Of a DNA stretch of 64,000 nucleotides, positions 10,093 to 45,622 are shown one piece after another. Below the pieces are notes generated by a model. It saw nothing but the letters and a program-made list of their open reading frames with translations. It made no database searches and was not told where the DNA came from. The position numbers were made by a program, and so were the translations under genes. Numbering within the stretch: the stretch's first letter is position 1; the number at the start of each line of letters is the position of its first letter. Source of the stretch: an uncultured Bacilli bacterium (lineage in GTDB: Bacteria > Bacillota_I > Bacilli_A > RF39 > UBA660); the NCBI GenBank assembly GCA_944332475.1, contig CALVKA010000003.1:163257-227256 (forward strand), written 5' to 3'.

Positions 10093-10169
10093 TGGGGCGT
10101 CGTATGAGGATCGAACTCATGCATACTGGTGCCACAAACCAGCGTGTTAACCACTTCACCAACGGCGCC
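10093..10169 (-). tRNA. tRNA-His (anticodon GTG) with encoded G-1 and 3' CCA
   Basis: Minus-strand read TGGCGCCGTTGGTGAAGTGGTTAACACGCTGGTTTGTGGCACCAGTATGCATGAGTTCGATCCTCATACGACGCCCCA. Anticodon stem CTGGT/ACCAG with loop TTGTGGC (GTG). T-loop TTCGATC. G-1:C73 pair diagnostic of tRNA-His. Confidence 0.85.
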
Positions 10170-10217: not shown

Positions 10218-10294
10218 GTACTTTTTGTAATTTTTGGGTATTTGTCTTAGACATCTATCATTTTTTGGAATACATTAAATCGAAAGGAGATATT

Positions 10295-16444: not shown

Positions 16445-16605
16445 AAAAATATGTGGTGATATATATATTGTTGTAATGTTGATTTTACTTTTTGCTATAT
16501 ATCTAACGAAGCACTTATCTCCGCAGTAGCATCCGCCGAATCTTTCGATCACTACTGTCCTCGTCAACTCTAGGAGTCCAGGCGCTTAAATGAAAACTTC
16601 TCCTT
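16445..16605 (-). ncRNA. glmS ribozyme (GlcN6P-responsive self-cleaving riboswitch) in the glmS 5' leader
   Basis: Minus-strand AAGCGCCUGGACUCCUAGAGUUGACGAGGACAGUAGUGAUCGAAAGAUUCGGCGGAUGCUACUGCGGAG carries the conserved AGCGCC cleavage-site, GACGAGGA, AUCGAA and UCGGCGGAUGC blocks of the glmS ribozyme core, directly upstream of glmS. Confidence 0.8.
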
Positions 16606-33311: not shown

Positions 33312-33384
33312 AGTATCACCTATTTTTATTATATATCAAAAATAAGAAGAACAAAAGAACAGATTCTTTTATTCAAATAAAAAG

Positions 33385-33412
33385 TGGAGTCTTATGGCTC
33401 CTTCAAAGAGAA
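33385..33412 (-). terminator. intrinsic terminator downstream of the flavodoxin-like gene
   Basis: Minus strand GGAGCC-ATAA-GACTCC hairpin followed by ACTTTTTATTT; near-copy of the 36176 hairpin. Confidence 0.45.
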
Positions 33413-36160: not shown

Positions 36161-36191
36161 AAAATAAACAAAAGTGGAGCCTTGCGGCTCC
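36161..36191 (-). terminator. intrinsic terminator of the GNAT-domain gene (GGAGCC/GGCTCC stem)
   Basis: Minus strand GGAGCC-GCAA-GGCTCC followed by ACTTTTGTTTATTTT. Confidence 0.5.
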
Positions 36192-36333
36192 TTCAGGGGG
36201 TTCGGTTGAATATACTCTCACATTTAAACACCGTGAGAGATATCGGCGTGATATGTATCACGCATCTTAATCATAAAGTATATTTTATAAAAAGTCAATT
36301 GCTATTTCTAAAATATTTTGGTGCTTGACAGTT

Positions 36334-37395: not shown

Positions 37396-39390
37396 TTATC
37401 CTTTTGTAATCGAATCAATTAATTTTATCTTTAATGGATCTTTGTCTGTTTCTTTATTTAATAAATATTCTTCAGAATCTTTCTTTGCTTGTAGTAATAT
37501 TTTATAGTCTGATCTAATATTAGCAATTTTAAATGACATGTCACCGCTTTGTTTTGTTCCAAATAGATCTCCATGTCCACGTAATTTAAAATCTTCTTCA
37601 CTGATTTTAAATCCATCGTCTACTTGTTCCATAATTTTTAAACGTTCTGCATCACTATCGCTGACTAAGATACATTGTGATTTGGAACTACCTCTTCCAA
37701 CACGCCCACGTAATTGGTGTAATGTTGATAGTCCAAAACGATCTGCATCAAAGATTACCATAGTTGTTGCATTTGGTACATCGACTCCTACTTCGATTAC
37801 TGTTGTCGAAATTAAGATTTGAATTTTATTTTCTGAGAATTGTTCCATAATCATGTCTTTAGCAGCACTGGCCATTTTTCCATGGACAATATCTATTTTA
37901 TAGTGTTCGCCGAAGGCCAATTTCATTTGATCTCTCAATTGGCATACTGTAGTTAAATCCGAGTTTTCATTTTCTTCAATTAATGGAGCGATAACATAGA
38001 CTTGATGATTTTGTTTTAATTCTTTATACATCATTTCTAATACGTCTTTGATTTCACTATTTTTCTTGACTACGGTGTCTATTTTTTGTCTTCCTTTTGG
38101 TCTTTCTTTAATCGTTGAAACATCCATGTCTCCAAATATTGTTAGGGCATAAGTTCTTGGGATTGGTGTTGCACTCATGTATAAAACATCTGGTTTTTTT
38201 CCTTTGTTTTGAAGATTTGCTCTTTGATGAACTCCAAAACGATGTTGTTCATCTGTGATTACTAAACCTAAATTATGATATTCGACATCATCTTGAATTA
38301 GGGCATGAGTTCCTACTACCATACTGATTGTTCCATCTTTTAATTCATCGTAAATCTTTTGTTTGTCTTTTTTTGGTGTTGATCCCGTTAACAAAGCAAT
38401 CTTAATATCTGTTTTCTTTAAAAAGTTTTCTAAATTATGAAAATGTTGGGTTGCTAAAATTTCGGTTGGTGCCATCAAGGCACTTTGAAAGCCACTTAGG
38501 TGATTAGCAAGCATGGCTAAAAACGAAACAATCGTTTTACCACTACCAACATCTCCTTGCAATAGTCGGTTCATTCTATGATTTGCTTCTAAGTCTTCTA
38601 CAATTTCACTCGTTGCTTTTACTTGGTCAGGCGTTAATTCAAATGGTAAATCTTTGATAAACTCTTGTAATTTTTCTTTATCAATCTTTCTTTCTAGACC
38701 TTGTTTTTTCTTTTTGTTTTCTAATTTTAAATAATTGATTTTAAACATGAAAGCAAATAATTCTTCATATTTTAAACGAATTGTTACTTCTTTTAATTTT
38801 TCTTCTGTCGATGGGTTATGAATTAAATTTAAGGACGTTTTTTTATTGGAAAAGTGATATCTTTCTAAGTATTCTTCTGGTATATAGTCTGGTATTTCTT
38901 TTCCAAATTGTAGTAATGCCATATTAATATAAGTTGAAATATTTTTATTGGTTAATCCACTTGTGGCGTGATAGACTGGCTCTATTTTTACTTTGTTTGA
39001 TAATGTTTCTAATTTGATATCAGCTGCTGTTATGACGTTTTTCTTTTTATCTAATTTTCCAATTACCGTAACCCCGGTTCCTACTATCAATTGATTCTTA
39101 AGGAAAGCTCGATTGAAGATAGATACTCCTACTACTCCAGATGGTGTTACCAATCTAAAGTTCATTTTATTTAGTCCTGCTTTAAAGCGCATTAAAATTG
39201 GTATACTTTCTACTCGCCCGTCAATGACAATTTTTTCTCCATCCTCCACTTCTTGTAAATTATTTCTTTCTAGTATTTCGTAACGAAAGGGATAATGGGT
39301 TACTAAATCTTCTATGGTATAGATTCCTATTTTATTTAATAAAGAAAGGGATTTCGGTCCTATTCCTTTTACGTCCTTTAATTCAGCCAC
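37396..39390 (-). CDS. recG: ATP-dependent DNA helicase RecG
   Basis: 664 aa; wedge domain, DEQHRFG and QLRGRVGRG helicase motifs. Confidence 0.9.
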   Translation of the reverse strand: MAELKDVKGIGPKSLSLLNKIGIYTIEDLVTHYPFRYEILERNNLQEVEDGEKIVIDGRVESIPILMRFKAGLNKMNFRLVTPSGVVGVSIFNRAFLKNQLIVGTGVTVIGKLDKKKNVITAADIKLETLSNKVKIEPVYHATSGLTNKNISTYINMALLQFGKEIPDYIPEEYLERYHFSNKKTSLNLIHNPSTEEKLKEVTIRLKYEELFAFMFKINYLKLENKKKKQGLERKIDKEKLQEFIKDLPFELTPDQVKATSEIVEDLEANHRMNRLLQGDVGSGKTIVSFLAMLANHLSGFQSALMAPTEILATQHFHNLENFLKKTDIKIALLTGSTPKKDKQKIYDELKDGTISMVVGTHALIQDDVEYHNLGLVITDEQHRFGVHQRANLQNKGKKPDVLYMSATPIPRTYALTIFGDMDVSTIKERPKGRQKIDTVVKKNSEIKDVLEMMYKELKQNHQVYVIAPLIEENENSDLTTVCQLRDQMKLAFGEHYKIDIVHGKMASAAKDMIMEQFSENKIQILISTTVIEVGVDVPNATTMVIFDADRFGLSTLHQLRGRVGRGSSKSQCILVSDSDAERLKIMEQVDDGFKISEEDFKLRGHGDLFGTKQSGDMSFKIANIRSDYKILLQAKKDSEEYLLNKETDKDPLKIKLIDSITKG

Positions 39391-39469: not shown

Positions 39470-40369
39470 TTATTTGTGCTTTACTAAACACTTTTCATAG
39501 GTTTCTTTTATATCACCTATTTTTTCAATTGTTTTACTATCTACATTAGCCATTTGTCCTAAAACTTCAAGATCTGTTATACCTGTTTCTTCATATTTTG
39601 TAAGTAATTCTTTCACTTCAGAAATACTACTCATAAGACAATTAGGGTCATCTAATGTTCCATATCTAAGGCCTGATGCATCTGTATAAAATCTTTTTAT
39701 TTCATAATCATGTTGTCTTCTTCCTGTAATATCTTCAGCAGATTGATATAGTTTGTTTATTTCTTCTAACCAAGCTCTGGCAAATTCTATCATATCTTCT
39801 TTTTTCATTCGGCCTGGTGTTGTTTCAAAATCACTAGGTTTTAATGGATTTCCATAAATAACAGCATTTTCTTGTCCTAGTATCTGTGGTTCCATATATA
39901 TAGGTACTAATTCTTTTTTACTACGTGATGAAATAAAGAATGTACCTAGAGGTATAGTCCTTAAATGATATTTAGCTAATTCAACCATTAATTTGGGATC
40001 GACGTGTCTTCCTTGAGGAAATATTATTAATGAATGAGTTTTGTCTTTTAATTTTCTCAGTTCACTAAGTATTTCTTCTGGATGTAGTTCATCTCTAGAT
40101 ATGGGATATACATTGAATAAAGGTAAAACTTTGGCATATAGAGGAAAGTTATCCCAGAATTCTCTATACATAAATGTATCTATATCATAATCTTTAGCAA
40201 GCAATGACCATATTAAATATCCATCTAAGTTATTGGTATGATTAGGAGCAAAAATATAAGAGTCTTGTGTTAGATTATCTTTCTCATACTCTTTGGTAGG
40301 ATATAATAAACTAGGATATAAAAAATAAGCAACATTAGCTAATACAGGGTTAATTACATGTTTTTCCAT
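39470..40369 (-). CDS. PlsC-family lysophospholipid acyltransferase-like protein
   Basis: HxxxxD as NHTNNLD and LIIFPQGRH (FPEG-like) motif; extra C-terminal region. Confidence 0.55.
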   Translation of the reverse strand: MEKHVINPVLANVAYFLYPSLLYPTKEYEKDNLTQDSYIFAPNHTNNLDGYLIWSLLAKDYDIDTFMYREFWDNFPLYAKVLPLFNVYPISRDELHPEEILSELRKLKDKTHSLIIFPQGRHVDPKLMVELAKYHLRTIPLGTFFISSRSKKELVPIYMEPQILGQENAVIYGNPLKPSDFETTPGRMKKEDMIEFARAWLEEINKLYQSAEDITGRRQHDYEIKRFYTDASGLRYGTLDDPNCLMSSISEVKELLTKYEETGITDLEVLGQMANVDSKTIEKIGDIKETYEKCLVKHK

Positions 40370-40393
40370 AGGTATCTCCTTTTATTGCTGCAT

Positions 40394-40421
40394 ATTATAA
40401 CAGATTTTCATTTTTTTGCAA
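40394..40421 (-). promoter_or_regulatory. sigma-A-like promoter of the acyltransferase gene (-35 TTGCAA, 16-nt spacer, -10 TATAAT)
   Basis: Minus-strand TTGCAA (40416-40421) and TATAAT (40394-40399), ~25 nt upstream of the start with AAAGGAG RBS. Confidence 0.4.
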
Positions 40422-40438
40422 CTTTTTTTGATTTTTTG

Positions 40439-40467
40439 TTGACAAATAGAATACTTTCGGTTAGTAT
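40439..40467 (+). promoter_or_regulatory. near-consensus sigma-A promoter (-35 TTGACA, 17-nt spacer, -10 TAGTAT) with no plus-strand gene downstream
   Basis: TTGACA at 40439-40444, TAGTAT at 40462-40467, spacer exactly 17 nt. Confidence 0.4.
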
Positions 40468-40473
40468 AGGAAC

Positions 40474-40616
40474 TACCAATTCGGAATTAGGCGAATTGGT
40501 CGCTAGTATCACACTAGCCAACCCCTTTTTATTCTTTTTAGAGGTTGCCCTTCAGGGGGTGCAACCTCTTAGATGAAAAGTAAAAGAAGCTCTTTGCCGG
40601 AGAGCTTCTTTTTTCG
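40474..40616 (+). ncRNA. candidate small structured RNA (~140 nt, four hairpins, ends at an intrinsic terminator)
   Basis: Hairpins CCAATTCG/CGAATTGG (8 bp), GCTAGT/ACTAGC, AGAGGTTGC/GCAACCTCT (9 bp plus extension), and terminator AAGAAGCTCT/AGAGCTTCTT followed by TTTTTTCG. Lies between promoter and terminator; no ORF. Confidence 0.3.
40584..40616. terminator. bidirectional intrinsic terminator (10-bp stem; U-tracts on both strands) serving PFOR on the minus strand
   Basis: AAGAAGCTCT-TTGCCGG-AGAGCTTCTT with TTTTTT (plus) and TTTTACTTTT (minus). Confidence 0.6.
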
Positions 40617-40641
40617 TTATAAAATAATAAAGAGAACTGTT

Positions 40642-43600
40642 TTAGTTCTCTTTTTGCTTAGCTAAATTTTCATAATATTCATATCTTGCTTCTGCATTTT
40701 CTTTGTTTTTTGTTAGTAGTTGTTTATGATTTTTTGATATTTTTTCTAGGGAATGGTATCTATCTTCTCCTAATATGAATTCTTCATATTTGCTGAAGTC
40801 TCCTTTACTATCCATTTTAAATTCTTTGGTTTCTGGATTGTAGTGGAAGATTGGGAAGTATCCAGATTGGGTCGCTTCTTTTTCTTCAACAATAGAGTTT
40901 TTCATTCCTTTAATAATGCCTTGGGCAATACATGGTGCATAAGCAATGATAATAGATGGACCATTATATTTTTCTGCTTCTTGTAATACTTTTACTGCTT
41001 GTTGCGGATTTGCTCCTAGAGAAATAGTTGCGACATATACATGTGGATAGGTTAAAGCAATTTTTGCTAAATCTTTTTTCGCTGTTTCTTTTCCTGCTGC
41101 TGCAAATTTTGCAACAGCTCCGGTTCTTGTTGATTTAGAAGCTTGTCCACCAGTATTAGAATATACTTCTGTATCTAATACTAATATATTTACATTTTCA
41201 TTATTAGCTAGAACATGGTCAATTCCATTATAACCAATATCATATGCCCAGCCGTCTCCTCCAATCATCCAAACTGATTTTGGCTTGATGAAGTTCTTTA
41301 ATGGTAACAATTCTTTGATTTTTGTTTCATCAATTACTTTTAATAATTCTTCTGCTGTTTCCATTGTGATGTTTTCCACATAGTTCTTGTATGTTTCTTG
41401 TTGTGATTTTTTTACATCTTTTATATTTTCTTTTATGAATATCTTGATTCTTTCTTTAATCGTATCGTCGGCAATTTTCATACCATATCCATATTCAGCA
41501 TTGTCTTCGAATAATGAGTTTGCCCAAGGGACTGAGTATGGTGTTGCTGGAGTTGACGCTCCATAGATAGAAGAACATCCTGTTGCGTTTGCAATAATCA
41601 TTCTATCCTTAAATAACTGTGTTAATAGTTTTAAATAAGGTGTTTCTCCACAACCTGCACAAGCTCCAGAAAATTCAAATTTTGGTACTTTGAATTGACT
41701 ACCTTTTACTGTCGTTGTTGGCATGACATCTTTTTCTGTTACTTCATTAAATAAGTAGTTGTATTCTTCTTTTGTTTTTTCTTCGTCTAATTCTTCTTTT
41801 ATTTTCATAGTTAGTGCTTTAGCACCTTTTTTGCCTGGACAAATATTTTCACATAATCCACATCCCGTACAATCTGGAACACTGATTCCAATCGTAAACA
41901 TTAAATTTTGATCTTTAATATTAGCTGGGATTAACTTTTCTCTTAGGCTGTCTGGGGCGTCCATAACTTCTTTTTCGTCAAGTAAAAATGGGCGAATGAC
42001 TGCATGTGGACATACTAGGGAGCAAAGGTTGCAAGAAATACAATTTTCGCTATTAAAACATGGAACAATATCTGAGATACTTCTCTTTTCCCTTTTTGTC
42101 GTTCCTGGCTCAAATGTTCCGTCTGGATTTTTTAAGAAGCTACTAACTGGTAGTGAATCTCCTTCCATACTGCTAATAATATCAAACATATCCTTTTTTG
42201 GTGGAAATTCTTCGACATAATCTACTACTGGTAATTTTACCTGTACTAGACTGTTGATACTGCAGTCCATTGCTTTGATATTCTTTTCTACAATTCCACC
42301 ACTTTTATTGGCAAATTTTGCAGCTAAGGATTCTTTTATTTTTTGTACAGTAAAGTCAAAATCCATGATTTTTCCTAGTTTAAAGATTAAGGTTTCCATA
42401 ATGGCACTAATTTTACCTGATAGGCCATTATCAGCAGCTATTCTTCCTGCATCTACAATATAGAATTTAATATTTCTAGATTGTAAAATCTTTTTATCGT
42501 GAGATGTCATTTCTTTTAATATTTCATCTTTATTTTTATTTGTATTAAGCAAGAAAATACCATTCTTTTTAATCTTGTCTAACATTTTTAGTTTCTTTAA
42601 ATATGATTCTTTTGTACAAACTACCATACTTGGATTTTCTACATAGTATGTTGATTTAATTGGTTTATTTCCCATTCTTAAGTGGGACATAGTAATTCCA
42701 CCTGATTTTTTAGAATCATATTGGAAATATCCTTGTACATAGGCTCTTGTATAAGTACCGGTTAGTTTCATGATATCTTTACATGCACTTACCATACCAT
42801 CACTACCATATCCATAGATTAAGAATTCCACGTTGTTAGATGGTAGACGGAAATCTTTGTCATAGTCGATAGAAAGATTGGTTACATCATCTTCAATACC
42901 TACCGTGAAGTTGGTATGAGCATCTTTTCTATCCATATAATCGAAAATACCTTTAATCATTGCAGGGGTTGTATTTTTACTAGAAAGTCCATAACGTCCT
43001 CCTAATACTTTTACCTTTCCTTCTACTTCTTTAATCGTTTTTACAATATCTAAGTATAGGGGTTCACCTGCAGAACCTGGTTCTTTTGTACGGTCTAAAA
43101 CAACAATTTTCTTTACTGACTTTGGTAAGGCTTTTAAGAAATATTTTGTGCTAAACGGACGATATAAATGTACTTCTAATAATCCCAAATCATTTCTTTT
43201 TTTACCTAGATAGTCAATTGTTTCTTTGATGGTTTCACAGACACTACCCATCGCTACAATTACTTTGTTAGCTGTTTCACTACCATAGTAATTAAATGGT
43301 GCATAATTTTCTCCCGTTATCTTGTTAATCTCTTGCATGTAATCATTTACGATATCAGGCACTTTATCATAATAGGAATTTCTTACTTCTGTTGCTTGAA
43401 AATAGATATCTTCATTTTGTGAAGTACCTCTTGTTACTGGGATGTTTGGATTTAGTGCTCTATCTCTAAACTCTTGTAGAGCTTTTTCGTCAATTAATTC
43501 TTTTAATTTATCGGTATCGATTACCTCTACTTTTTGTAGCTCATGACTGGTTCTAAATCCATCAAAGAAGTTGACAAATGGTACTCTTCCTTTGATGGCA

Positions 43601-44067
43601 GATAAATGAGCAACTCCTGTTAAATCCATGACTTGTTGTACAGATGAGGATGCTAACATAGCAAATCCTGTTCCTCTTACGGCATAGATGTCTTGGTGAT
43701 CTCCAAAAATTGATAAAGCATGGGTTGCTAATGAACGAGCAGCGACATTAATAACACATGGTAATAACTCTCCCGCGATTTTATACATATTAGGAATCAT
43801 TAATAGTAAGCCTTGACTTGCCGTATATGTTGTTGTTAAGCATCCGGCTTGTAAAGATCCATGTACCATTCCTGCTGCTCCTGCTTCTGACTCCATTTCT
43901 ACTACTTTTACAGGCGTTCCAAAATAATTTTTTCTTCCCTCATTACTCCATTTGTCAGCAAGTTCTGCCATAGGAGATGCTGGTGTAATTGGATAAATAC
44001 CTGCTACTTCAGTAAAGTTATATGATACATAACTACAAGCTTCATTTCCATCCATTATTTTTTTCAT
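40642..44067 (-). CDS. por: pyruvate:ferredoxin (flavodoxin) oxidoreductase, single-polypeptide type
   Basis: ~1140 aa; N-terminus MKKIMDGNEACSYVSYNFTEVAGIYPITPASPM; two 4Fe-4S ferredoxin CxxCxxCxxxCP motifs; TPP-binding GDG region. Start placed at ATG 44065-44067 behind a GGGAGGA RBS rather than the track start at 44091. Confidence 0.9.
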   Translation of the reverse strand: MKKIMDGNEACSYVSYNFTEVAGIYPITPASPMAELADKWSNEGRKNYFGTPVKVVEMESEAGAAGMVHGSLQAGCLTTTYTASQGLLLMIPNMYKIAGELLPCVINVAARSLATHALSIFGDHQDIYAVRGTGFAMLASSSVQQVMDLTGVAHLSAIKGRVPFVNFFDGFRTSHELQKVEVIDTDKLKELIDEKALQEFRDRALNPNIPVTRGTSQNEDIYFQATEVRNSYYDKVPDIVNDYMQEINKITGENYAPFNYYGSETANKVIVAMGSVCETIKETIDYLGKKRNDLGLLEVHLYRPFSTKYFLKALPKSVKKIVVLDRTKEPGSAGEPLYLDIVKTIKEVEGKVKVLGGRYGLSSKNTTPAMIKGIFDYMDRKDAHTNFTVGIEDDVTNLSIDYDKDFRLPSNNVEFLIYGYGSDGMVSACKDIMKLTGTYTRAYVQGYFQYDSKKSGGITMSHLRMGNKPIKSTYYVENPSMVVCTKESYLKKLKMLDKIKKNGIFLLNTNKNKDEILKEMTSHDKKILQSRNIKFYIVDAGRIAADNGLSGKISAIMETLIFKLGKIMDFDFTVQKIKESLAAKFANKSGGIVEKNIKAMDCSINSLVQVKLPVVDYVEEFPPKKDMFDIISSMEGDSLPVSSFLKNPDGTFEPGTTKREKRSISDIVPCFNSENCISCNLCSLVCPHAVIRPFLLDEKEVMDAPDSLREKLIPANIKDQNLMFTIGISVPDCTGCGLCENICPGKKGAKALTMKIKEELDEEKTKEEYNYLFNEVTEKDVMPTTTVKGSQFKVPKFEFSGACAGCGETPYLKLLTQLFKDRMIIANATGCSSIYGASTPATPYSVPWANSLFEDNAEYGYGMKIADDTIKERIKIFIKENIKDVKKSQQETYKNYVENITMETAEELLKVIDETKIKELLPLKNFIKPKSVWMIGGDGWAYDIGYNGIDHVLANNENVNILVLDTEVYSNTGGQASKSTRTGAVAKFAAAGKETAKKDLAKIALTYPHVYVATISLGANPQQAVKVLQEAEKYNGPSIIIAYAPCIAQGIIKGMKNSIVEEKEATQSGYFPIFHYNPETKEFKMDSKGDFSKYEEFILGEDRYHSLEKISKNHKQLLTKNKENAEARYEYYENLAKQKEN

Positions 44068-44147
44068 CGTATTTCCTCCCTTACTTTTCATTATATCGCA
44101 TTTTTATTCTTTTTTAAATTAAAAACTATATAGACCTCGCTATACAG

Positions 44148-44678
44148 TTATAAATTTGATTTTATGTAATTATAAATTTTATTATAAGTATCATTGGTGT
44201 AATGTAGGCCATCTGTTGTTGAAAATCCTGTAGACTTTAAATGTGAATTGGTATCTATATAAGTTACGTTAGAATTTAGTCCTGATTTCATTTGTTGATT
44301 AAAGCTATCAATATCACTATTTAAGTTGGAATAACTTCCTTCTGTAGGATTTACTGATACAAAATAAGTATGTGCACCTGATGATGCCCAGGTATTAGCT
44401 TTTTCATTGATATAGGACAGATAACTACTGGCTCGATATAGGTCGTTTACTCCCATTAGTATGACAACCCCGGAACCGTTTCCTATACTTCCTTCTATAT
44501 TAGGCACTCCTGTTGACTGCATCCAATCTAGTCCTGCGGATACTTTGCCACTCCAAGTATCATTTCCACCTACTGCTGATTGCATGCCAACTGTTCTAGA
44601 GTCTCCTACAAATATTAGATTACTGATATTAGTATTTGATGGGCTACTCTCCTGAGTAGCTGTACTAGGGTGTATCAT
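44148..44678 (-). CDS. SGNH/GDSL-family hydrolase domain protein
   Basis: FVGDSRT (GDS block) and DGLHYT (DxxH block). Confidence 0.6.
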   Translation of the reverse strand: MIHPSTATQESSPSNTNISNLIFVGDSRTVGMQSAVGGNDTWSGKVSAGLDWMQSTGVPNIEGSIGNGSGVVILMGVNDLYRASSYLSYINEKANTWASSGAHTYFVSVNPTEGSYSNLNSDIDSFNQQMKSGLNSNVTYIDTNSHLKSTGFSTTDGLHYTNDTYNKIYNYIKSNL

Positions 44679-45069
44679 AATCTTCAGGATTTGTAATTAT
44701 GGATTGTTTGTCTCGATCATCGGTTTCTACGTATGTACTTTCATCTCCGATGCTAGCAACTTGTTCGGCATTATTCCAACATTTTGCTAAATCAAAAGAA
44801 GAATCTGCTAAAGACATTGTTAGATTGACTAAAAAAGGAATCATAAATAGTAGTACTAAGGCAATTAAACTATTTTTTAATCCCGCTTTATATTTTTTTT
44901 CATCTGGATTTGTGATTAATTTTGCAAAACAAATTGCTAAGGCTACGATTGATAAAATAGGTCCTACAATTTGAATTAAATTTAATACTGTTTTTGCAAT
45001 ACTTAAAATATTAGCAATTCCTATATTACCACATGCTTCAATGATATCTTTACTCACTGTTCCTGTCAT
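44665..45069 (-). CDS. small membrane protein (2 TM) overlapping the SGNH hydrolase gene by 14 nt
   Basis: Two hydrophobic helices then an acidic tail; may be the membrane anchor of a frameshifted fusion (see findings). Confidence 0.4.
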   Translation of the reverse strand: MTGTVSKDIIEACGNIGIANILSIAKTVLNLIQIVGPILSIVALAICFAKLITNPDEKKYKAGLKNSLIALVLLFMIPFLVNLTMSLADSSFDLAKCWNNAEQVASIGDESTYVETDDRDKQSIITNPEDYDTP

Positions 45070-45622
45070 ATTCTTCCTTCTTTCCTATTTCTTTTTTATA
45101 TACTAAATAGTAAGTTCCTTCTACTGGTATGGTTTGATAGTCTTTTCCAAAGACATGTTCAATTCCTTTTTTGGATGGAATATTACTATATTCACAGGCA
45201 ATTACTATTTTTTCAATTCCGTATTCTTTTACTAAACTTACTGCTAGTTTTAATATTTCTTTATAATGACCTTTGTTTCTTTCTGTTGGTCTAATATCTA
45301 TTCCTATATGGCCATATACTTCACCATGCTCATAGTTTAGAGAATGTCTAATATCTAATAGAGCGATTAGATAATCTTCTTCTTTGGTCAAAACTAAATA
45401 TGTGGTACATCCAACTTGTCCTTTTTTTAAATGGTCTTCTTGATCTAATTTTTCTTCTTCTTTAAACCAATCATAAAAATTATCGTAATCTTTATAAGTC
45501 TTACCTAATATTAAAGAGCAATCTCCGGCTTGAATACTATCGTTTACTGCGTAATGTTCTCTAGCAAAATCATCTACTAATTCTTGATCGAAGATTGTTA
45601 CTGGTCGTGCATATAATTCCAT
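45050..45622 (-). CDS. hypothetical protein, possible GNAT-fold acetyltransferase
   Basis: Complete ORF, weak GNAT-like pattern (HIGIDIRPTERNKGHYKEILKLAV). Confidence 0.35.
   Translation of the reverse strand: MELYARPVTIFDQELVDDFAREHYAVNDSIQAGDCSLILGKTYKDYDNFYDWFKEEEKLDQEDHLKKGQVGCTTYLVLTKEEDYLIALLDIRHSLNYEHGEVYGHIGIDIRPTERNKGHYKEILKLAVSLVKEYGIEKIVIACEYSNIPSKKGIEHVFGKDYQTIPVEGTYYLVYKKEIGKKEEYDRNSE

Follow-up and report, generated by a model that had tools for sequence, protein, structure and literature searches.

LhrC of Listeria directs CU-rich motifs in single strands or loops, with three UCCC motifs, against AG-rich ribosome-binding sites, and is encoded in several copies, some of them in tandem. 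In RsaI/RsaOG of Staphylococcus, a C/U-rich region is left unpaired and G-tracks occupy hairpin loops; the two can pair with each other. The nut- and put-type antitermination RNAs are phage RNA elements at operon heads, and the motif of the small RNA (sRNA) RsaE reads CCCCUUUGUUU. The C-rich regions of RsaE/RoxS (RF01820; Staphylococcus, Bacillus) pair with Shine-Dalgarno (SD) sequences that are rich in G (PMC4409812). Here we describe an RNA gene that shares features with each of these systems, located on a stretch of 64,000 nucleotides (nt) from an uncultured Bacilli bacterium (assembly GCA_944332475.1, contig CALVKA010000003.1), referred to below as the window, with a G+C content of 29.7%.

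The element lies between the genes for an acyltransferase (39470–40369, minus strand), with RecG beyond it (37396–39390, minus strand), and PFOR (40642–44091, minus strand). We consider it very probable that it belongs to a genuine, independently transcribed RNA gene family. It has its own promoter, its own terminator and a covarying structure on the transcribed strand, holds no conserved open reading frame (ORF) and is not a leader; the family is a new one of a well-known kind, the stand-alone bacterial sRNA. Its common form measures ~100 nt, and the RNA of the window, at ~145 nt, is the long form. Our full explanation, an independently transcribed sRNA that would act in trans through an exposed C/U-rich linker, is given a probability of roughly 0.55. 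The features of the locus are as follows (L numbers, here and below, denote loci).

40439–40444 (+): –35 hexamer TTGACA, from a consensus scan; TTGAC[AT] in 90 of 91 distinct homologous upstream regions.
40462–40467 (+): –10 hexamer TAGTAT, after a 17-nt spacer; 10 of 12 matches for the promoter overall.
40473–40617 (+): predicted long-form transcript of ~145 nt, its 5' end taken from promoter geometry and its 3' end from the U-tract.
40475–40500 (+): H1, the 5'-terminal hairpin, ACCAAUUCG / CGAAUUGGU with loop GAAUUAGG; from the fold, with at least one double change in 9 of 9 pairs and 94% of cells paired.
40501–40542 (+): 42-nt block (H2, linker and AGA), identical in the IMG/VR phage contigs L021, L022 and L024.
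40502–40518 (+): H2, GCUAGU-AUCAC-ACUAGC; nearly invariant in sequence in 84 distinct alignment rows.
40519–40539 (+): linker CAACCCCUUUUUAUUCUUUUU, single-stranded and pyrimidine-rich, the presumed functional site; identical in L012 and L015 and unpaired in folds.
40540–40569 (+): H3, AGAGGUUGC...GCAACCUCU with apex CCUUCAGGGGGU; covariation at 12 of 12 pairs, with pairing in 95.8% of cells.
40570–40581 (+): A-rich spacer UAGAUGAAAAGU, long form only; 40572–40580 is predicted to pair with the linker U-tract at 40525–40533.
40582–40617 (+): H4, intrinsic terminator with a 14-bp stem, loop GCC and a U-tract (hairpin 40582–40612); also a terminator on the minus strand.

RsaE/RoxS resembles this RNA in being a trans-acting Firmicute sRNA of the ~100-nt type with its own promoter and terminator, in the unusual conservation of its primary sequence, and in an unpaired C-rich motif followed by U's (here ACCCCUUUUUAUU). 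Its model, however, scores 14.4 bits on the plus strand and 20.1 bits on the minus strand against a gathering threshold of 79, and drops out of a scan of the core alone. The RNA described here has one unpaired CCCC run, in the linker, rather than several – the CCC of the H3 apex is paired – and differs further in its helix layout, invariant H2, terminator-loop G-run and phage-borne copies. LhrC is multicopy, a trait echoed by two contigs that carry two copies less than 1 kb apart, whereas most of our loci are single; the two RNAs lack sequence or model similarity, and ours has one long invariant pyrimidine tract. The counterparts of the RsaI/RsaOG elements would be the linker CCCC and the CAGGGGG loop, but there is no Rfam match, ~15 members lack the G-run, and size and helices differ. 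Finally, the phage copies described below resemble nut/put elements in being co-directional with a packaging operon, in having hairpins that flank a conserved single-stranded stretch and, in L024, in the regulator gene that precedes them, whereas the host RNA is a terminated stand-alone gene and not an operon leader.

A sequence-only reading of the window had reported no match to SRP RNA, 6S, tmRNA, RNase P RNA or a riboswitch, and had proposed an Rfam scan. At gathering thresholds, Rfam 15 returned no family over the RNA stretch; elsewhere in the window it found only a glmS ribozyme (16448–16597, minus strand, 76.5 bits) and one tRNA (10096–10168, minus strand, 55.4 bits). Relaxed scans of the RNA stretch gave only sub-threshold matches, mostly terminator-driven or due to chance, among them Phe_leader (30.7 bits against 55) and RT-14. 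None of the housekeeping RNAs named above and no riboswitch appeared at gathering thresholds or at E <= 10, apart from SAM-II at 11–19 bits against 44, so that the earlier statement is borne out. Sequence strings of the RNA were found neither in searchable full texts nor in 200 of the 408 supplement files of a human-microbiome structured-RNA catalogue, and a prior listing is possible. The description of the RNA as novel thus holds with respect to Rfam 15 and the searchable literature; it does not hold in the sense of an RNA unique to this genome.

The promoter predicted by the sequence-only reading, TTGACA-17-TAGTAT of the sigma-A type, is present and is conserved across the family. A single match would not stand above chance, since the scan found 8 promoter-like matches against 8.5 expected in shuffles. 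Among homologous promoters, the spacer measures 17 nt in 86 of 90, and in 82 of 90 the –10 hexamer lies exactly 8 nt before the CC of H1; the hexamer itself reads TAGTAT in 46, TATTAT in 19, TAATAT in 13 and TAAGAT in 7. From this fixed distance, transcription should start 1–3 nt before H1. In Firmicutes, a 5'-terminal hairpin protects against 5' exonucleolytic decay. The consensus character of the promoter suggests high expression, and the RNA is probably abundant. As a separate observation, the sRNA promoter regions of L081 (3867–3900) and L046 themselves hold AAAAAGGGGTT(G), the complement of the RNA's own linker, which overlaps the –35 box in L081 and sits in the promoter spacer in L046.

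The RNA stretch folds well. The minimum free energy of 40470–40616 on the plus strand is –58.3 kcal/mol against –34.4 +/- 3.7 kcal/mol in dinucleotide shuffles (z = –6.41; 0 of 200 as stable). All four consecutive hairpins of the sequence-only reading were recovered. The minus strand folds too, as hairpins do (z = –5.4), so that the fold alone does not give the strand. We found three terminator-like sites where 0.8 were expected, namely 40582–40612 on both strands and 40653–40629 on the minus strand. Two U-G pairs in the H4 stem favour the plus strand. Within the window H3 is not followed by a U-run and so is not a terminator here, although it is one in the short-form relatives. The four-hairpin architecture accordingly holds for the window's subfamily, whereas most family members have three hairpins and terminate at H3. 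Partition-function folding predicts the pairing of the A-rich spacer with the linker U-tract in 12 of 12 long-form relatives, with CCAACCCC staying exposed.

A metagenome scan with the 19-nt linker AACCCCTTTTTATTCTTTT returned at least 120 loci, and family counts given here are among the matches listed. At least ~110 of these loci share the window's architecture, ~10 are chance matches and one is phage-type; the homologues sit on gut and rumen metagenome contigs of uncultured Bacilli. The family consensus begins with A/T-rich DNA and TTGAC[AT]-17-TAGTAT/TATTAT/TAATAT, followed after 8 nt by H1 (ACCAAUUC...GAAUUGGU), H2 (GCUAGUAUCACACUAGC), the linker (CAACCCCUUUUUAUUCUUUU) and H3, a 9–12-bp stem whose apex is usually YCUCAGGGGG. 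In most members a run of 6–9 U's follows H3, which is then the terminator of an RNA of ~100 nt. In the window's long-form subfamily, comprising at least 13 sequences, H3 is followed by UUAGAUNAAAA...AAAAG and the extra terminator H4, whose stems differ widely yet change in a compensatory manner among close and distant relatives as the loop UGCCG is kept. A GGGG run 3' of the linker is present in 94 of ~112 family loci.

Conservation around the window points to the RNA itself. The acyltransferase gene recurs without change on numerous gut-metagenome contigs, of which one measures 1.42 Mb. Strains in which it is identical also share the RNA body exactly; in two of these strains the H4 stem differs, with compensation, as does the 3' end of PFOR. 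The order PFOR–acyltransferase–RecG is kept in L012–L014, where the acyltransferase is 62% identical, and in L015–L016, where it is 58% identical. In these five loci the match is near base-for-base between the –35 box and the point where H4 begins, with one loop deletion or one substitution. Divergence is seen in the spacer of the promoter, in the upstream intergenic DNA (where one indel spans 31 nt), in the stem of H4 and in the 3' flank. H4 stems such as GCUCU/AGAGC, GACC/GGUC, GACA/UGUC and GCCC/GGGC surround a constant loop, UUUGCCGG. Judged from these alignments, the conserved unit is RNA-sized and is under strong purifying selection.

We built a covariance model, R1, from 13 in-register long-form sequences (alignment A6) and obtained 90 matches at E < 1e-8. 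The loci that have lost the synteny (L008–L011, L017–L020, L161–L164) show no copy near the acyltransferase gene, and R1, run on nine of them, detected none. We found no paralogue of the RNA in the window, and a search of 0.8 Mb of loci with R1 brought up no further diverged copies. Two contigs each carry two same-strand copies less than 1 kb apart with different H3 stems (L085, 104–207 and 894–996, minus strand; L149, 1–77 and 415–512, plus strand), which suggests local duplication of the sRNA gene in some lineages. On family contigs RecG is 39–94% and PFOR 49–90% identical to the proteins of the window, and the family therefore spans a deep lineage.

Hairpin covariation in relatives, named by the sequence-only reading as a check, was assessed on an alignment of 84 distinct rows; the rows were fitted to the model, which favours structure, and single-sequence folds of members independently give the same helices. 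Of all pair cells, 96.2% hold a standard pair against 84.3% in shuffles, 21 of 27 pairs have changed on both sides against 10.4 in shuffles, and the covariation score is 0.373 against 0.149 (0 of 500 shuffles reach it; slid controls give 0.06–0.10). All 12 pairs of H3 covary, with up to six pair types, and all nine of H1 do so, each in few sequences. H2 is without covariation: four of its six pairs are invariant (84 of 84), at the remaining two the commonest pair is found in 78 and 82 of the 84 rows, and one pair varies only from G-C to G-U. H2 stood outside the search pattern. G-U pairs are frequent, with U-G in 63 of 84 rows at one H3 pair and G-U in 29 of 84 at another. Because these would be A-C mismatches on the minus strand, they fix the transcribed strand as plus, together with the conserved promoter and the U-runs.

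We next consider how the RNA may act. The linker has a mean unpaired probability of 0.88–0.99 at every position (partition-function folding of 85 members), and its complement, AAAAGAAUAAAAAGGGGUUG, resembles the ribosome-binding region of Firmicutes. It is the constant part across hosts and three phage scaffolds, and as the sole segment common to them it presumably marks the functional site. Two lines of support are unbiased by the search: the linker is identical in the synteny-anchored relatives L012 and L015, and it is present in 5 of 7 phage elements found via another anchor, with only CAACCCC, TAACCCC and CACCCC as variation.

In the mechanism that we propose, a near-consensus sigma-A type promoter would start the RNA 1–3 nt before H1, which would be followed by H2, a ~20-nt unpaired linker and a terminator; termination would occur at H3 in most relatives and at H4 in the window's subfamily. 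In the long form, pairing of the A-rich spacer with the U-tract would lengthen H3 and leave CCAACCCC exposed. The linker would pair with G-rich, SD-like sequences and thereby block translation or alter mRNA decay, and the hairpins would give stability. We rank seed pairing first because the complement of the linker resembles a ribosome-binding site (RBS) and because pairing of C-rich motifs with SD sequences is established for RsaE/RoxS and is also known from LhrC. Base pairing through the linker, taken by itself, is held tentatively, at slightly less than even odds.

Several observations weigh against this explanation. Among the metagenome loci, the linker is invariant partly by construction, as the exact linker was the search pattern. 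In 1.15 Mb of related DNA, exact and near-exact complements of the linker were no more frequent than those of shuffled seeds, and duplex energies across the window likewise showed no excess over such seeds. The ~40 invariant nt, including the non-covarying H2, are more constraint than a seed needs and suit a protein or an RNA machine no less well; phages preserve both H2 and the linker. Two individual candidates were rejected as targets. One was PFOR, where a 14-nt complement (44101–44114) in a putative promoter spacer is not conserved in ~25 relatives. The other was a ruvA leader, with a 19-nt perfect complement in L094 (939–957), a low-GC gut bacterium, from which the close relatives (L155–L160) differ in reading AAAAAACAATAAAAAGGGG or AAAAAACAAAAAAAGGGG, that is, AAAAAACAATAAAAAGGGGTTT or AAAAAACAAAAAAAGGGGTTT. 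The sRNA carrier L140 has no linker complement in its ruvA leader, and no sRNA was seen on the L094 and L155–L160 contigs; the match probably arose by chance in an A-rich, RBS-like leader.

Other complements of the linker were observed. On L026, a 100-kb viral contig, a 22-nt complement (10243–10264) coincides with the RBS (AAAAAGGGGUUGAAAUUAUG) of a 137-aa gene, phrog_11543; this could be a candidate target or chance, with ~1 chance match expected for an AT-rich 20-mer. Translations of spurious ORFs in its surroundings hint, by eye, at tRNA-like sequence. On an unrelated contig of higher G+C content (L104, 2341–2519), three direct repeats of AGAATAAAAAGGGG(TT), again a linker complement, lie within 180 nt of intergenic DNA; they resemble iterated binding sites, and the match to the linker is probably coincidental. 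The A-rich promoter spacer of PFOR in the window holds AAAAAGAATAAAAA, complementary to the U-tract of the sRNA and not conserved in other species.

The core of the RNA also occurs in phages. Scans of IMG/VR placed the linker in ten viral contigs. Besides the three contigs identical to the host over the 42-nt block, 41 nt are identical in L023 and one T is missing from L025, and in all five (L021–L025) the block lies directly 3' of a tRNA-like element ending in ...CCA. Such elements are found in L021, L023, L025 and L128 (~100 nt 5' of the block); one type, 149 nt long (L022, 4352–4500, minus strand; L024, 7960–8108, plus strand), has an Rfam tRNA match of 35 bits and several T-arm-like repeats. 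ARAGORN, run on the phage loci, calls none of these elements, which may be processing modules or unusual tRNAs. The block is followed by a covarying hairpin (CACUAC..GUAGUG or GUACUAGC..GCUAGUAC) and then by a conserved ACUGAUGAUAU...GGACGUUAUCAUAAAGAC. This combination is present in seven viral contigs, with or without the linker and upstream of packaging genes (around the GGACGTTATCATAAAGAC match in L021, 6465–6560, and in L023, L028 and L031–L034), and may represent a cos/pac region or the leader of a late operon.

The remaining viral copies retain less of the core. In L027, L028, L031 and L034 the linker stands alone, after hairpins with GCAGGGGA or CAGGGA loops; in L029 and L030, which lack H2, an extended –10 promoter and a short hairpin precede the linker and a hairpin follows it. 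Genes for the terminase large subunit and portal lie downstream of the element in all six contigs examined (L022, L023, L025, L027, L029, L030). A transcription regulator gene precedes it in L024, the one contig scanned for a preceding gene. H1 and the H3 apex were not found in viral contigs, and collections of cultured phages and plasmids gave no match to the element. In hosts a CAGGGG motif is found 3' of the linker, and some phage variants have it on the 5' side, which hints at CCCC:GGGG pairing, either as self-masking or as a pseudoknot; such pairing cannot be essential, because ~15 host members lack the G-run. A triple helix or canonical H-type pseudoknot between linker and H3 was rejected by reasoning, as sterically and compositionally unconvincing for the host arrangement.

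The main rival to a base-pairing sRNA, which we regard as possible if unlikely, is a protein-binding RNA that serves as a decoy, scaffold or recruitment platform. H2 and the linker would form a platform for a conserved host factor, for which a factor of transcription elongation or termination such as NusB/S10, Rho (through a C-rich unstructured site) and a KH- or S1-type RNA-binding protein are candidates; by placing a copy of this platform where their packaging or late operon begins, phages would recruit or titrate that factor too. This reading accounts for an H2 stem and loop that are invariant, without covariation, in 84 distinct sequences although they lay outside the search pattern, for the 42-nt identity with phage contigs, for the position of the six examined viral copies upstream of terminase and portal genes with a transcription regulator before the one in L024, and for the complement scans that yielded no base-pairing target. 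A 5' hairpin, a single-stranded stretch and a terminator are, however, equally typical of pairing sRNAs, and L029 and L030 keep the linker without H2. The linker segment UAUUCUUUUU is loosely like a boxA core, but this likeness extends over only 6–8 nt amid U-rich sequence. A string of the canonical Firmicute-type boxA occurred only once, in an unrelated intergenic region of L056. A more far-reaching version, which we consider doubtful, makes the element a housekeeping-grade RNA of an order-level lineage of gut Bacilli, its invariant 40-nt core docking a central machine of transcription elongation or termination, or of RNA decay, and captured by phages, which would fuse it to tRNA-like processing modules at the entry of the packaging or late operon and so hijack or titrate that machine by mimicry.

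The conserved block could alternatively act as DNA, as a phage attachment site (attB/attP) or a palindromic operator. RNA genes are classic phage integration targets, the host/phage identity is exact over 41–42 nt with sharp boundaries, and H1 and H2 are inverted repeats. We found no ORF of at least 250 aa, the size of an integrase, beside the element in any viral locus, all of these being partial phage contigs; the large ORFs after the element in six loci encode terminase or portal and do not mark a lysis/integrase junction. Hybrid host/phage junctions are present in 0 of ~110 listed host loci, and the conserved promoter, terminator and G-U-tolerant covarying helices are not needed by a DNA site, which makes this reading quite improbable.

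Less probable again is a cis-regulatory leader or riboswitch of a downstream plus-strand gene that terminates at H3. A terminator placed after a conserved, structured 5' region would suit it, as would the possible alternative pairing of the linker CCCC with the GGGG of the H3 loop, and the downstream gene is on the same strand in 28 of 91 loci. The next gene in the window is, however, convergent and a second terminator follows H3. Across the family, 63 of 91 loci have a convergent gene downstream, and the downstream gene families are heterogeneous; four same-strand cases were inspected, and in each a promoter-like sequence belonging to the downstream gene itself comes after the U-run. On the upstream side, 76 of 85 loci have a divergent gene; 49 of these genes fall in one cluster with a RecG-like representative, and 42 match the window's RecG directly. 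The arrangement of neighbours, in agreement with the earlier view that the RNA is not a leader, excludes a leader, a riboswitch and a PFOR 3' untranslated region (UTR) as general explanations.

That the hairpins are a minus-strand 3' UTR or terminator array of PFOR, or the leader of the acyltransferase gene, is less credible still. The first of these had been named as the outcome that would overturn the sRNA interpretation. H4 does score as a terminator on the minus strand, which also has its stable fold, but the frequent G-U and U-G pairs would become A-C mismatches there, the plus-strand promoter is conserved family-wide, and PFOR is the downstream gene in only 22–23 of 91 loci. The acyltransferase gene, as the sequence-only reading had stated, has a separate promoter, found in the consensus scan at 40421–40394 (minus strand; TTGCAA-16-TATAAT with an upstream TG), an extended –10 promoter that lies downstream of the element.

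H4 had been described as a strong terminator shared with PFOR. It is bidirectional and lies where predicted, but PFOR has a 10-bp hairpin of its own (40653–40629, minus strand), with the stop codon (40642–44) in the loop and a weak U-rich tail after it. This hairpin is probably PFOR's own terminator, with H4 a back-up at most, and H4 is therefore primarily the terminator of the RNA. The locus L007 keeps the RNA terminator though the sequence just downstream is unrelated to the window's PFOR end.

A small protein, or half of a type I toxin-antitoxin pair, is next to impossible: the mechanical ORFs over the RNA stretch are only two (40358–40576, plus strand, 72 aa, with a start upstream of the RNA promoter; 40408–40521, minus strand, 37 aa), conservation of either is precluded by the homologues, in which variable linker–H3 spacing and an indel of 1 nt between H1 and H2 break both frames, H3 varies in a pairwise-compensatory and not a codon-like manner, no conserved SD and start codon was found among the RNA homologues, and the match to the RatA antitoxin family (RF01776) is weak, at 22.1 bits against a threshold of 49. 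The absence of an ORF claimed by the sequence-only reading is upheld in this sense.

A few further features of the window were recorded. The PFOR ORF is listed from an ATG at 44091, and the likely start is the ATG at 44067 after the SD sequence GGGAGG, which gives the 1141 aa called in relatives; a –10 box, GATATAAT, lies ~25 nt upstream of this start (44060–44140, minus strand). Genes for a GDSL-like lipase, a T4SS-pilin domain protein (PF18895) and a GNAT acetyltransferase lie just upstream of PFOR (44148–45622, minus strand). Two similar hairpins, GUGGAGCCUUGCGGCUCC and GUGGAGUCUUAUGGCUCC, at 36166–36210 and 33361–33400 (plus strand), are likely minus-strand terminators. The 12-mer CCTTCAGGGGGT, identical to the H3 apex, comes after the first of them, and this sharing may be chance.

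Almost nothing is known about RNA regulators in uncultured gut Bacilli with small genomes. Two features of this RNA are uncommon: a conservation near that of housekeeping RNAs, and an exact phage copy of its core at a fixed position in phage genomes. R1 is a covariance model ready for annotating metagenome-assembled genomes, and the chromosomal neighbourhood of the RNA gene (recG, PFOR) is recurrent. The phage copy of the core is a case of phage–host RNA mimicry or of a shared factor-binding site, and may help to link uncultured phages to their hosts. Should the linker prove to be an anti-Shine-Dalgarno seed, the RsaE/LhrC principle would be extended to a new lineage; if instead the RNA binds a protein, it may reveal a new RNA–protein hub.

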